64,000 nucleotides of DNA, from positions 163,556,001-163,620,000 of the forward strand of contig OZ024741.1 of assembly GCA_964016885.1 (NCBI GenBank). The letters run 5' to 3'. Positions 5,047 to 36,324 of this stretch are shown piece after piece. Each line of letters begins with the position of its first letter. The stretch's first letter is position 1. Origin of the DNA: Eledone cirrhosa (Eukaryota). The notes beneath the pieces are model-generated. The model did not search any database, was not told the origin of the DNA, and saw only the letters and a program-made list of their open reading frames with translations. Both the position numbers and the translations under genes were made by a program.

Positions 5047-5206
5047 TCGGTGAATCCATACGTACATATATATATGTGTGCATGTATGTATATATATATA
5101 CACACTACTGTACGTCTGTATACATATATGTATGTACGTGTACATACTTATATTTAAGTAACAGCCGTACTAAGAGTGGGAAATGAAATTTCATTTCATT
5201 TTTTCC

Positions 5207-5272
<66 letters not shown>

Positions 5273-12819: not shown

Positions 12820-13536
12820 TAATGGTTAAATGCAACCACAAACTAAAAGCTAAATTCTCTCACTATAAAATAACTTAACATTCGAACCCGTAACTATAAC
12901 ACCGTTTTCTAGCTAACAACCTTCTCTTCCCCCCACACTACAAGACAATACACTGCTTATCACTATACATGGTAACTCAGTGCAATTCCTAGATTACTAC
13001 TACAAACCCAAAGTTCACTCACCACACAAACTTTGTCTGTCCCCTCTCTACCTATCTCTCTCTACATCCATTACACTCTCTCTCTCTCGCCTTTGGCCTA
13101 CCTTCCTCTCAACATCTATGAACCTGCCCTCTGGGGCAATAAATAATTCCGACCTTAACTGTCAACGCAAACGCATCTCTCCAAAAGTAACCAGTATAAT
13201 AAAACCCCTACCATAACATTTTGATTAAGATATCTACAAGCCACTCTCTCCTACTTCTCCAACCCCTGCATATCTTTCTTTCTCTCTCCCTCTTCCCTAC
13301 TTTTCTCTCTTCCTTTTCTACTCTATCTTTCCCAACAACCCCACTTAAGGGTATTTACATTGTACATTTTACCATTCTGCTCTGAGGAAACAGTGGTCAC
13401 AGCATTGGATATTTAAGTTCTGCAAGTACTTGTGAATTTGCACGTAGCATAACTAGGCTGCAGTACCACCGTGGAAACACTTGTAAGCACACGGAATAAA
13501 TTACCTTTTTATGATGTCTACCTGTTATTATTCATT

Positions 13537-13540
<4 letters not shown>
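12820..13540 (+). mobile_element. PLE-type 3' UTR/pLTR fragment embedded in (TA)n
   Basis: C/T-rich tract, then an HHR, then AATAAA (13495-13500), then (TA)n. The 3' ~135 nt recur inverted at 47499-47635. Confidence 0.7.
13378..13489 (+). ncRNA. Type I hammerhead ribozyme with ~85-nt stem II domain
   Basis: UGCU-CUGAGGA-AACAGUGGU...ACCACCGUG-GAAACACUUGUA-AGCA: stem I UGCU/AGCA, GUA site. Confidence 0.75.
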
Positions 13541-13584
<44 letters not shown>

Positions 13585-17784: not shown

Positions 17785-18511
17785 TATTAAGTGTAATTAA
17801 TTCTTTTACAATGGAATTAGCTCAAAGGAAATATTCCTGGGCCGTGTATAAAAGTAATATATATGAGTAATATATATGATGAAACAGATACCAACACATC
17901 TGTATTTATATTGCAAAAGAAAGTTAGCCAGAATGAAGAATATTAATTATTTTACCACAGTTCGTCCACATCGATTTAAAATAATAAATCGACAAAAACT
18001 AGCTGCGCTGCCAAATGGCTATGATGTTTATACATATTTAAATTTCAAAGTCAAACCTGTTCAGTAGATAAGTTTAAACCTCATATATACGCCTCATATA
18101 TACGACTGTTATTTCTAGCAGTACGGTTATGAGACTAGCTTGAATCTGTGAACCCATGTGCGTCACACAGTCTTTTAAATTATTTAGAAGTGAAGCTTAT
18201 CAATTGTCTCTGGATGTTTACTGAGGAGAGCAGTGGCATGATATTCCTACACTTATATTCATCTCGAAACATGTTTGGATTTTGAGGTTTAAACTTATCT
18301 ACTGAACAGGTTTGACTTTGAAATTTAAATATGTATAAACATCATAGCCATTTGGCAGCGCAGCTAGTTTTTGTCGATTTATTATTTTAAATCGATGTGG
18401 ACGAACTGTGGTAAAATAATTAATATTCTTCATTCTGGCTAACTTTCTTTTGCAATATAAATACAGATGTGTTGGTATCTGTTTCATCATATATATTACT
18501 CATATATATTA

Positions 18512-20262: not shown

Positions 20263-20694
20263 GAAATATACTTATGTATACATATATATATATATATGTA
20301 TTCATATATTTATATATATATTTATATATATATGTGTGTGTGCGTGCGCGCGTTTGTGTGTATATATGGCTGTGCGTGTGTATGTGTGAGTTCGTTAGTG
20401 TGTGTGTGTGTGTGTATGTCAGTTTCTCTACCCCAAGTGATATAAACATATGCGCACTAAGAATCAAGCAGACACACTAAAACATATGTATGTATTTTAG
20501 ACTTCTTTAAACAAACTAACCAACCCATCATCTATAACCACACTTCATTTAAAATTCTTCACATTCGTATCTGCCCATCCTTTCTCTTTCACAGATAAAC
20601 ATTTCATATACAATTAAGTTAAAAATGTACATCCATATATGTATACTGAAATACTAGTATGCATATGAATACACACACGTATACATATATAGAT

Positions 20695-21060
20695 GTACCA
20701 AGTCTTTCACTGGTTACTTTACTGTGAGTATCCAGCTATTCTGTATGTAAACACACAGACAAACCGGTTTTTAGAGTCATACTGGTTTTTGAGGAAACAC
20801 CTTTCCTCTATTCTCCAGAAAGCCAGACAAGGAATATTGAACTAGTTTCGTTGTTGTTACAACTCATCAGCAATATTTACCTATCTACCGGCCTTTCTGG
20901 AGAATCGTAAAAGCACATATCGTTATATGCTTTTTCTATGAAAATTAGTAGTGGGCAGACTAATTTGCATAGAGTGTGAGTACGTACCGGTTCAACGGAG
21001 ACGATAAAAACAAATAACGAAACGAAATTAAATTTCGTTTCATATAGTTTGCCTAATTCA
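20695..21060 (-). mobile_element. Diverged family B element (multi-hairpin RNA around an HHR)
   Basis: Same order of motifs as 47780-48070: GAAATT..TTTCGTTTC hairpin, CCGG, CACTC-n-TATGCAAATT hairpin, extended stem I, HHR. Boundaries are approximate. Confidence 0.68.
20811..20904 (-). ncRNA. Type I hammerhead ribozyme with long extended stem I (family B)
   Basis: AAUAUUG-CUGAUGA-GUUG-UAACAA-CAAC-GAAACUAGUU-CAAUAUU (core 20833-20877). Outer stem UUCUCCAGAAAG / CUUUCUGGAGAA. Confidence 0.92.
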
Positions 21061-21315
21061 CCGTCACACATATCATACAACTTCAACTTGTTTGATTATA
21101 CCACAGAGAAAACCATAATAGTATACTCCAACTGCATTTCACAGACTACCCACTATAAAAACAAACACACATGAAAAGAAGCAGCTCCAGAGGACAACAC
21201 ATTACAATACTCGAATATTAGTGCAACGCTTCTCAGAAGTTAGATTATCAGACATGAACCACGCAGAGACAAACACATGTTTAATCTGAGGCCAGTCATT
21301 CTTGAAAGGGTTAAG

Positions 21316-21532
21316 GGCGGCGGATTGGCAGTATCGGTAGAGGGTCGGACACTATGCGTTGCAGCACAGAGTTCCGGCCCTTTATAATCTGAGGTCAAAT
21401 CCCGCCGAGGTCAACTTTGCCTTTCATCCTGACGGGGTCGATAAAATAAAGTACCAGTCACGCACTGGAGTCGATTTAATCGACTCCCCCACCCCGAATT
21501 GCTGGCCTTGTGCCTATATAAGAAACCATTAT
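21316..21532 (+). mobile_element. S1 SINE (long subfamily) with TSD
   Basis: TTGAAAGGGTT at 21302 and 21532. Confidence 0.9.
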
Positions 21533-21560
21533 TGAAAGGGTTTCATCATCATCATCATCA

Positions 21561-21930: not shown

Positions 21931-23805
21931 ATATGTTTCTTTATTAGCCACAGGGGCACAAAATAAGGGGACAAATACAAAGGGGGAAGTTTACATACAA
22001 TAAAAACGTGTAAAATACTATCACAAATACAATTTAAAAGTTAATCTATTTTCCCCCAATAGGAGGAGACATTACATATGGGTAACACAAACCCCCGAAA
22101 AATGTGCAACCCTCATCTCCAGGAGTACGAAGAGTTTGTACCCCTTTCCTCTCCTCCTCTTTTTCCTCAACCTAGAGGCTGATATAGAGAGAAGGCCCAT
22201 TCACTCGGGCCATTCTCGCCACTTTCACCCACCTTTCATAAAACTTGTTGGGGTACAGCACCTCTCTCTCCATCCTGATTCTTCTTCTAAAGTGGTATTT
22301 GAGAATAAGAATCAGTTATTGGCCGGAGAGAAAGGTGTCTGACCTCAGCCCTATCAACCTTGTCCACCATACAACCTCTTTCGCCATAGCTATCACACAA
22401 AGGAAAACCGCCTGTCCTTCGTTTTTGAAGGAGGGTGGTGGTTTTATCATGACAATGGACTCGGTGGTCAACCGGATTAGTCCCACCCGCGACAATAGTC
22501 GTTCTACATAGCTCCACAGGTCGGTAACGCCCGGGCAGTGTATGAATGCGTGCGCGACGGTTTCTTCGTCTCGCACGCACCTCGGACAGATCTTTTTTGA
22601 AGGGTCCCTGCCCGGGCGCACATGTCTGTAGAGCTTGTCTCGAACTGGTAGAGCTCCTCTGTAGCACTGCCAGGCCAGTGACTTTTGGAAGTTGTCCATC
22701 GGTCCCTGGTGGAAGGTCCTACCGAACAGACTGGCTAGTTCGTCTTCCTCTACGCCTAGAGTTTCACCAAGCGCGTCGTCGCACTTGCCGCGGATCAACC
22801 CTCTATAGAATGATCGCCGAGAGGGCTGTGAGCGTCTGAGCACATTCGATGTGCCAGTCGGCCAGTCGGCCCACTTCTGGGTGAGTGCAAACTCCTTGGC
22901 CGTCACCTCGTTCCAGTTTTTCTCCACCTGGAGGTCCGGACGAAACCAGACCCCGAGCAGCTTTACCGGTCCTTCCGTCCAGCGTCCGTCAACGCCATTG
23001 GAAGGCATCGGTTTGCCTCTCCACGATCCGAGTTGCAAATCGATGTACTTGTCCCGGTTCAGCTTCGCTCCTGTGAACCTTTCGTATTCCTTCAGTAAGG
23101 TCCCGACCTCCTCGATTTGCGAGGCGCTCGACACCATTACTGACATGTCGTCGGCGTAGGCCGACGCCGCTGTCCGCAGTCCCGGTTCCAGAGGGATGCC
23201 CTGCAATAGATCCAACTTCCGCAGTAGTGGCTCGAGAGTCAGTACGTACAGAAGGGAGGAGATAGGACATCCCTGTCGAATGGATCGCGTGATATGGAAC
23301 GGCTCCGAGAGGTAGCCGTTCACTTTGACCCTTGAGCAGATGTTGCTGTTGTGCATTACAGCAATCCAGCCCCTGAACACGGGTCCGAAGCCTGGTGCCT
23401 CGAGCACCGCATCCATGTTACGATGGTCAACCCTATCGAAAGCCTTAGACTCATCCAAGTTGATCAGGGCCCCACCGAAGCCGGTTTTACACTCTACCCT
23501 CTCTATGATGTATCGCATGAGGTGGAGGTTGTCGTGTATGGACCTGGTCGGCATTGCCCATGTCTGCGCTTCTCCCACCAGGTTCTCGACGACAAGCGCC
23601 AGCCTCTTTGCCAACACCTTGGCGAAAATCTGTAACTCTGTGTTTAGCAGAGTTATGGGCCGGAAGTTGCCTATGTCCTCCCCCTTATTCTGGTCCTTCC
23701 TGATTAGTGTGACTACGCCCCCGGTCACAGAACTGGGAATCCTCCCGTTCTGCTGCCAGTTGCAGTAGACCGCTTCCAGGAGACCGGAGAATAAGTCCGG
23801 CATTG
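21931..23805 (-). mobile_element. Tx1/L1-clade LINE, 5'-truncated, RT plus C-terminal Cys-rich region, internal deletion
   Basis: ORF 22316-23803: NFRPITLLNTE, NLDESKAFDRVDH, IRQGCPISSLLY, AYADD, CPRC...ETVAHAFIHC. 3' end GGCTAATAAAGAAA followed by (TCTA)n. Confidence 0.95.
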
Positions 23806-23829
23806 CTACGTAAAATAGATAGATAGATA

Positions 23830-24330
23830 TATTTCTTTATTAGCCACAGGGGCACAAAAGAAGGGGACAAATACAAAGGGGGAAGTTTACATACAATAAA
23901 AACGTGTAAAATGTTATCACAGATGGAATTTAAAAGTTAGTCGATTTTCCCCAATAGAGGGAGACAGTTTATATGGGTAACACATACCCCCGAAAAAAAT
24001 GTGCAACCCTCATCTCCAGGAGTACGAAGAGCTTGTACTCCTTTCCTCTCCTCCTCCTTTTCCTCAACCTACAGGCTGATATAGAGAGAAGGCCCATTCA
24101 CTCGGGCCATTCTCGCCACTTTCACCCACCTTTCATAAAACTTGCTGGGGTACAGCACCTCTCTCTCCATCCTGATTCTTCTTCTAAAGTGGTATTTGAA
24201 AATAAGAATCAGTTGTTGGCCGGAGAGAAAGGTGTCTGACCTCAGCCCTTTCAACCTTGTCCACCATACAACCTCTTTCGCCATAGCTATCACACAAAGG
24301 AAAACCGCCTCTCCTTCGTTTTTGAAGGAG
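23830..24330 (-). mobile_element. Tx1/L1-clade LINE 3' fragment (tandem to previous copy)
   Basis: Near-identical to 21931-22432. Confidence 0.92.
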
Positions 24331-30643: not shown

Positions 30644-31442
30644 TGAGTTAAGAGCTCAGGGTAGTCTTAAATAGCTCTAAGAAAAAAGCTTTTCTGAGCC
30701 GTACAATATAATTGAATAAACAAGAGAGATGAACACTAATATAAACATACATGTGTTCGAATCGTAAGGACTAAAATTTGCTAGGGTGAAAAAATACTAA
30801 CTACACCAATATAGTTTGTTATCCTTAACTTTAAATATTAAATTAAAAAACATAAAGAAAAATAACAGACCTATATTGGGCAAAAATGCCTGGTAACAAC
30901 TAGACAGTGTTGGAGACTGTTTCGCAACGACTTATTAAGTAAAGTTCTCACGTTTCTCTGCTCCTCAGTAGTTGTTGAGAAATTAGTGATCCTTTCACTT
31001 CTAAAAATATTAGAGAATGAATTGTGTACGATATGAATTATCGCACGTGTCATACGGAATCCAGCTTGTCTCGAAATTCCCTGCCGCTAAAAATAGCAGC
31101 CTGGCTGACAGGACAATAAAAATTAGCTCCACATGATGGAGCCGATAAATATATATTGAGTTAAGAACTGAGAGTAGTCTCTTACAATTAAATAGCTCTA
31201 AGAAAAAAGCTTTTCAAGCCGTACAATATAATTGAATAAACAAGAGAGATGAACACTAATATAAACATACATGTGTTCGAATCGTAATGACCAAAATTTG
31301 CTAGGGTGGAAAAATACTAACTACAGCAATATAGTTTGTTTGTTATATTGCTGTAGTTAGCATTTTTTCACCCTAGCGAATTTTGGGCCTTACGATTGGA
31401 ATACATGTATGTTTATATTAGTGTCATTTCCCTTGTTTATTC

Positions 31443-35980: not shown

Positions 35981-36324
35981 TATATATATATATATATATA
36001 TGAAACTATATACTATATATTTATACATAAACATATGACAGCCTCAACATCGAAAAAAAATTCTTTTTCGTTATGAAAAAAGATGTTTTCTGCTTTGTAA
36101 ATAAGCCACAGATATCCCAGTAGCACTTGAGTATGCCAGACAGTATTGTTTCAAGATTAGTTAATCTCTCATCAGTGACACTCATTGAACCGGTACTGAG
36201 ATGAAAGTAGACTATATTCTATATAGATTTTGTGAGATGAACATTTGCTGGATGTGCTCATTTGCAAATAGAAACCCTCCGCTGGAAATACTCGTTTGCA
36301 TATAGTGCGAACTTGGCTGGTTAT

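Follow-up and report, generated by a model that had tools for sequence, protein, structure and literature searches.

Non-LTR retrozymes have been described in animals (PMC7229834) and have been proposed to be non-autonomous derivatives of Penelope-like elements (PLEs), in a study in which eight out of nine predicted Xenopus elements did not cleave (bioRxiv 10.64898/2026.07.22.740005). Hallmarks of PLE insertions include a tail on one side only, inversion and a bias for (TA)n (PMC8557442). In the PLE of Anolis the tail corresponds to the interval between two internal start sites of the reverse transcriptase (RT), and ribozyme cleavage was not needed in vitro (PMC11167929). Which enzymes transcribe and which enzymes move the retrozymes of animals has been an open question since the work on the newt satellite. 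One genome now offers concrete candidates for both, namely a promoter box in common with the U6 and RNase MRP genes of the host and RT start sites of the PLE type mapped to the base. The reading that we favour, with a probability of about 0.72, is that of a non-LTR retrozyme transcribed from an internal promoter of the U6/MRP type and copied into (AT)n sites by the RT of a PLE.

The window analysed here is a stretch of 64,000 nucleotides from Eledone cirrhosa (contig OZ024741.1), and the element of interest occupies positions 20610–21041 of its minus strand. It is very probably a copy of a non-coding hammerhead repeat, that is, a non-LTR retrozyme, in the form of a 5'-truncated monomer with about 432 of the 466 nt of the unit of a family named A. 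An earlier sequence-only reading had set narrower limits; the element runs beyond them, to about 20610. It is flanked by a 9-bp direct repeat (20602–20610 and 21038–21046, plus strand), the right copy having 4 nt in common with the truncated 5' end, and this repeat is likely a target-site duplication. No open reading frame (ORF) of 150 codons occurs in the element among the frames of the window. Rfam at gathering score gave no match anywhere in the window, the hammerheads having been obtained by a pattern search. The element region folds far beyond chance (z −7.1), while for the comparison region at 47.7 kb folding is modestly beyond chance (z −2.4).

All the parts of the element lie on the minus strand. 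From its 5' end, a portion of the so-called tail interval (21004–21041) holds a GAAAT..ATTTC hairpin (21019–21041) plus a T5, and position 21004 is the second fixed 3' end in other copies of family A. It is followed by a 12-nt box, TATGCAAATTAG (20960–20971), which matches the box found at −76 to −78 of the host U6, U6atac and RNase MRP genes and is likely a promoter element, and by a TATA-like box (20922–20929) 43 nt past the start of the octamer ATGCAAAT. The predicted transcription start, placed at 20893–20898 by counting 30 nt past the TATA or 77 nt past the box, falls within the 5' arm of stem I of the ribozyme. The latter is a type I hammerhead with an extended stem I (20810–20905), composed of the stem I 5' arm (20871–20905), CUGAUGA (20864–20870), stem II (20850–20863), GAAA with a palindromic stem III (20841–20849) and the stem I 3' arm (20810–20839), with a predicted cleavage site after 20840 at the triplet GUU. 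GUU is a slow cleavage triplet; the triplet is likewise GUU in A1, but GUC in A3 and GUA in B. It is not mentioned in the accessible part of a paper on cleavage triplets. Lastly, the "short" fixed 3' end of family A (20610–20627), preceded by a T5, is likely the first RT start site. Since the window copy holds one ribozyme only, it would by itself be unable to release RNA of unit length. A reading of ATGCAAAT as a SECIS element or as a start codon was dropped, the frames closing after 15 and 8 codons when followed by eye. Many copies of a SINE-like repeat are present in the window, and one of them (21313–21533) lies 270 bp from the element; LINE-like RT and endonuclease frames are present at 22316–23836 and 48869–51788.

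Several features pointed out in the sequence-only reading were found again: the octamer ATGCAAAT at 20963–20970 and at 47990–47997, a GAAAT..TTTCGTTTC hairpin in its place and, at both loci, a hammerhead with an ACUAGU stem III, whose type I cores lie at 20870 and 47917, all on the minus strand. Four small hairpins that it had listed are also there, one of them (20761–20788) being imperfect and paired otherwise in the minimum free energy fold. Its description of the two elements as sharing an architecture with little overall identity does not hold in its second half. The homology is supported, and the full units are colinear relatives rather than look-alike folds, 59% identical (286 of 482 columns), with an alignment score of 171, where 100 shuffles gave 3 at most; even the two intervals originally compared are 52% identical, with one stretch of 78 nt at 70%. 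The second element, a copy of family B (47681–48095, minus strand, limits approximate owing to flanking AT repeats), has its parts in the same order as family A. A third related family, F, is represented at 36104–36302 of the same strand, with a hammerhead at 36175 and two boxes, the first at 36268, with one mismatch and followed 42 nt later by a TATA, the other at 36302. Tail-end fragments of family B (5146–5212 and 43660–43707) and a repeated piece matching, by eye, the 3' end of family D (13401–13582 and 47456–47638) were observed elsewhere in the window.

The genome (3.0 Gb in 1,796 contigs) was searched for further members. Family A, with its unit of 466 bp, gave at least 104 matches among the 40 of 560 candidates that were scored; its copies are 98–100% identical, and the full-length matches, with one exception, 99–100%. 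Family B has a unit of about 420 bp and copies that are about 97% alike. Intact ribozyme cores of the A and B clades, recognised by a core pattern, number 40,258 (control 3), and the combination of tail hairpin and octamer 13,292 (control 0). A search for hammerheads that differ in stem III and have the octamer upstream gave 1,665 matches (control 6) and led to families C to G. Families C, E and G and most rows of F were recovered by requiring the 8-mer, which is an ascertainment to be kept in mind. Among hammerhead repeats found without requiring the box, families A, B, C, D and F and one of two M loci carry it; the box is absent from families H and I and from two hammerhead-like motifs of the window (30899–30968, minus strand, at 30968; 18221–18279, plus strand, at 18221), which have a long stem II and a repeated and inverted context. 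As families H and I lack it, not every retrozyme needs the box. Family I is a young, multimeric hammerhead repeat of 310–311 bp with long inverted arrays (L317, L318 and L331); its pattern class, which includes family C, has 18,719 matches (control 137). A U1-like sequence does lie at a suitable distance in family I, but its match is weak (2.9 bits, p 0.01) and not enough for a claim. Upstream of its main box, family D repeats octamer-like motifs several times (L258–L261), and family F has two. In some subfamilies of B (L268, L270 and L073) the T tract of the tail is broken, and read-through by polymerase III would be easier there.

Copies are dispersed, mostly in (AT)n, and range from monomers to multimers. 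Head-to-tail arrays reach 31 units or more, and an inverted arm is frequent. Mismatches are fewer within one insertion than between insertions (medians 2, 1 and 5; 41 units), and this low divergence fits a circular template and a homogeneous source array equally. Full units folded as circles reach z values of −8.5 to −12 (two A and two B units, 25 shuffles each), and one 496-nt contig, from four runs of unrecorded kind, closes on itself, as tandem DNA would also do. Among only 34 partial matches, the 5' ends do not pile up at the predicted cleavage site or start (one at unit position 235, two at 177–178).

The box held in common by the retrozymes reads TATGCAAAT(T/G)AG and, in 24 of 26 representatives, is followed by a TATA 42–47 nt later. 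The distance is 42–46 nt in families A–F (43 in A), against 46–48 in host genes; only G1 and G3 have 47, and B1 and G2 are without a TATA at that place. It was this TATA past the octamer that suggested a DNA element. The host snRNA genes were fetched by Rfam family (promoter loci examined: L177–L196, L217–L232, L239–L250, L277, L285 and L286). In 12 of 20 U6 loci, two of them single and ten being copies of one array, the box lies at −76 to −78; in six further array copies it is displaced by a SINE-like insert, and two loci lack it. The insert, of about 190 bp, sits between the TATA and the start in six of the 16 U6 array copies (L183, L184 and L186–L189) and is likely silencing. No box was found in 12 further U6 loci, mostly 5'-truncated and taken as retro-copies. 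The box is also present in one of eight U6atac loci, the best-scoring one, and in the single RNase MRP locus, which was looked up after the prediction had been made. In the host genes (three independent U6 loci, the top U6atac and MRP) it comes with a TATA at about −30. It has no match in 5,520 nt of DNA further upstream of host genes and is absent at that place from U1 (12 loci), U2 (eight loci, six of the 14 listed plus two) and RNase P (one locus). The U1 and U2 loci have TATA boxes and a TCA(G/A)T at −56 to −58, and RNase P has a TCA(G/A)T at −66 from the model start.

U6, U6atac and MRP are type 3 polymerase III genes. For U6, this assignment can be found in PMC1761439. The agreement between retrozymes and host genes goes beyond the 8-mer, with T at −1, A at +9 and G at +10 in 84–97% of family-weighted representatives and in four out of four host genes. 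A profile built from five host boxes gives 15.0 bits for family A, compared to 15.6–19.0 for the host boxes themselves, and most retrozyme rows score at host level. A distal element resembling TACCTCCCT, near −260 in 10 of 13 host loci, was found in one of the 26 retrozyme representatives and not in A. Together with the shorter distance to the TATA and the T5–T7 tracts of the units, this speaks against a plain U6 promoter. The sequence-only reading had recognised the POU/Oct octamer in ATGCAAAT and had offered a DNA promoter element as one explanation, which the presence of the same extended box in the host promoters supports. The versions found in host genes, among them ATGCTAAT and ATGGAAAT, hint that the box may be the proximal element of this lineage rather than an Oct site. 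That the box acts as a DNA promoter element is probable.

The ends of the insertions are informative about how the copies have spread. The 3' ends fall at two fixed places, which are separated by 60–72 nt and enclose the GAAAT..ATTTC hairpin, while the 5' ends are scattered. Once overlapping loci are dropped, 24 loci of family A can be counted: 18 are inverted, all 18 with one short and one tail end, and the remaining six end at one of the two sites. The pattern is less regular in family B: among 29 loci, six have a short and a tail end, one has two tail ends, 15 have one 5' end and seven are odd or cut. Overall, the insertions show 5' truncation, an inverted 5' copy, a one-sided tail and AT-rich or (TA)n flanks. 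The genome contains PLE-1, a young autonomous family with intact frames of 887 codons encoding an RT together with a GIY-YIG endonuclease at the C terminus, and at least two more PLE families. PLE-1 and PLE-3 have the same two ends in (AT)n, about 40 nt apart. A 5'-truncated, inverted copy of PLE-1 is found in the window (51806–53555, GIY-YIG at 52642–53304), and intact copies elsewhere have a terminal repeat whose hammerhead core is degenerate, as well as a Cys linker ahead of the endonuclease.

Two loci are apparent chimeras of a retrozyme and a PLE, as might be produced by a template jump. The former (L056/L251) is one inverted insertion with a tail end of family B on one side and a PLE-3 end on the other, directly joined at a microhomology of 5 nt; in the latter (L151) family C is joined to PLE-2. 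An adjacent insertion followed by a deletion is a conceivable origin for both. Another 29 loci of PLE-3 and 23 of PLE-1 yielded no further chimeras, and L300, considered as a third one, was rejected, its parts being separated by AT repeats. Family C has a block of 38 nt in common with the 3' end of PLE-1 (0 of 200 shuffles; 39 comparisons made). No autonomous PLE with a terminal repeat like A or B was found by comparison with PLE-1 and by eye at the ends of PLE-2 and PLE-3, and in 60 A/B loci the unit neither contains an RT plus GIY-YIG ORF nor flanks an ORF as its terminal repeat. PLE-1, the PLE of the window itself, was rejected as sequence parent of A or B, as no common 3' region was found. 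Taken as a whole, the insertion ends and the chimeras make it highly probable that a PLE RT mobilises the retrozyme.

Different explanations have to be weighed for the octamer. It could be a hairpin that the RT, or another protein, recognises in the RNA, and recognition by the RT was the other explanation advanced in the sequence-only reading. The hairpin is indeed strong in family A (z about −6) and moderate in B, the octamer sits some 35 nt to the 3' side of the tail end, and the Anolis PLE requires RNA 3' of the RT start sites (PMC11167929). However, the hairpin is weak or absent in the other families, the pairing registers differ among A, B and C, and 26 representatives (24 distinct) have no structure in common at this place: 49% of the cells are paired against 54% in a slid control, no double change is seen at any octamer column in the 24 distinct rows and RNAalifold predicts no consensus pair. 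What was called an invariant hairpin is therefore an invariant 8-mer with variable pairing. The helices of the ribozyme behave otherwise, with 80% of 387 cells paired in 23 representatives (slid controls 29–47%) and 78 double changes against 29 in shuffles, a test which relatedness inflates. Selection on an RNA fold, as previously suggested, is thus supported for the ribozyme stems and not for the octamer hairpin, and the supposed full compensation of stem I applies to proximal stem I and to stem II, the distal extension differing in length and being unalignable. Moreover, the same box occurs in untranscribed DNA of host genes, and it is GAAAT..ATTTC, a different hairpin, that the two fixed 3' ends enclose. 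Recognition of ATGCAAAT as an RNA hairpin is consequently improbable; its action as a single-stranded RNA motif is conceivable. A borrowed host promoter is the likely meaning of the box when set against an RNA hairpin signal.

If the box is a promoter, the same retrozyme, mobilised in the same way, could be transcribed by polymerase II from a promoter of the snRNA type, or from Oct plus TATA. The distance from box to TATA, shorter by 3–5 nt than in U6/MRP, would suit this, as would the C and A at +17/+18, which are 96% conserved and form TCAG in B, D and E at the distance seen in U1 genes. The host U1 and U2 genes have TATA boxes too, the newt satellite 2 provides a precedent (cited in PMC2220036), and polymerase II would pass the T5–T7 tracts of the units, through which polymerase III would have to read. 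By contrast, the U1/U2 box profile is good only in family D (9.9 bits; −4.2 in A), while the U6/MRP profile is at host level in most rows, and past the predicted start runs of T5 or more are rarer than runs of A5 or more (7 vs 18), a weak indication because the 26 rows are related and non-independent. On balance, a polymerase II promoter appears unlikely, though it deserves to be taken seriously, and for the choice of polymerase as such the comparison leans towards polymerase III. A more radical alternative is that the arrays are satellites spread mainly at the DNA level, with the 8-mer kept by common descent only. Very long arrays with alternating variants do exist, and at 59% identity between A and B the chance of a shared 8-mer from descent alone is about 1.5%. 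On the other hand, reverse transcription is indicated by the fixed 3' ends, the random 5' truncation, the inversions and a repeat that looks like a target-site duplication. In six lineages the box persists at a fixed distance from the TATA, and its match to the host promoters extends past the 8-mer. Spread of this type is very improbable.

Under the favoured reading, a retrozyme with a U6/MRP-type promoter mobilised by a PLE, the box and the TATA would make transcription begin at the ribozyme's 5' arm. Where units stand in tandem, the read-through RNA would carry the promoter of the next unit and a second ribozyme, and double cleavage would release a monomer, which may be circularised. The PLE RT would then nick AT-rich DNA and begin copying at two internal positions of the RNA, on either side of the GAAAT..ATTTC hairpin; one such start site per arm of the insertion would produce the short and tail ends together with the inversion. 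As the promoter lies inside the repeated unit, new copies would keep it, unlike U6 retro-copies. Tentatively, the retrozymes may have captured the upstream U6/MRP polymerase III promoter of the host, tandem repetition and the hammerhead having made an external promoter retrotransposable, a scenario that we hold at slightly below even odds.

A search of the literature (most subscription papers, Repbase and preprint supplements being outside its scope) brought up no earlier description of these families, of a retrozyme with a U6/MRP-type box or of U6 promoter elements in cephalopods. Tens of thousands of copies scatter the promoter box across the genome. The analysis has also, as a by-product, located the promoter elements of the host U6 genes, a useful resource for expressing guide RNAs in this group of animals. 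Should the proposal be true, one genome would offer, in a young retrozyme family and an intact PLE that is likewise young, a complete, testable retrozyme life cycle.

The families presented here resemble the known non-LTR retrozymes of animals in consisting of non-coding tandem units of a few hundred bases with one type I hammerhead each (PMC7229834; bioRxiv 10.64898/2026.07.22.740005), as well as in their low GC, in the range from monomers to multimers and in the proposed dependence on PLEs. Family B has a U–U mismatch at the base of helix II, as reported for a retrozyme family of the axolotl. They differ in that no promoter is assigned in the accessible portions of PMC7229834 and bioRxiv 10.64898/2026.07.22.740005. 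The link to PLEs was drawn from co-occurrence and terminal-repeat similarity in the published retrozymes, as far as these sources describe it, and is drawn here from insertion ends and chimeras. Circular RNA and cleavage have been demonstrated in published retrozymes, whereas families A and B are known from sequence alone. The canonical PLEs with a C-terminal GIY-YIG have partial tandems, an inverted 5' copy, a tail at one end, (TA)n targets and a hammerhead with a short palindromic stem III in common with the retrozymes (PMC8557442; PMC11167929); the retrozyme is distinguished by having no ORF and a tail of 60–72 nt instead of the 30–40 given for PLEs. The PLEs of this genome have degenerate cores, whereas the retrozyme has a full-size ribozyme with an extended stem I, and no U6-type box was seen in the PLE ends that were read, unlike in the retrozyme unit.

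Two other hammerhead repeats invite comparison. Newt satellite 2 has an octamer and a PSE. Like the units described here, it is a hammerhead tandem repeat with an internal promoter of the snRNA type (cited in PMC2220036). It was reported to be transcribed by polymerase II, while the box found here is that of U6/MRP and comes with a TATA. The promoter of the schistosome Sm-alpha consists of tRNA-type A and B boxes and is not known to include an upstream U6-type element. Nevertheless, Sm-alpha is alike in placing a promoter before the hammerhead, in requiring a tandem for propagation and in relying on polymerase III (PMC6765202).
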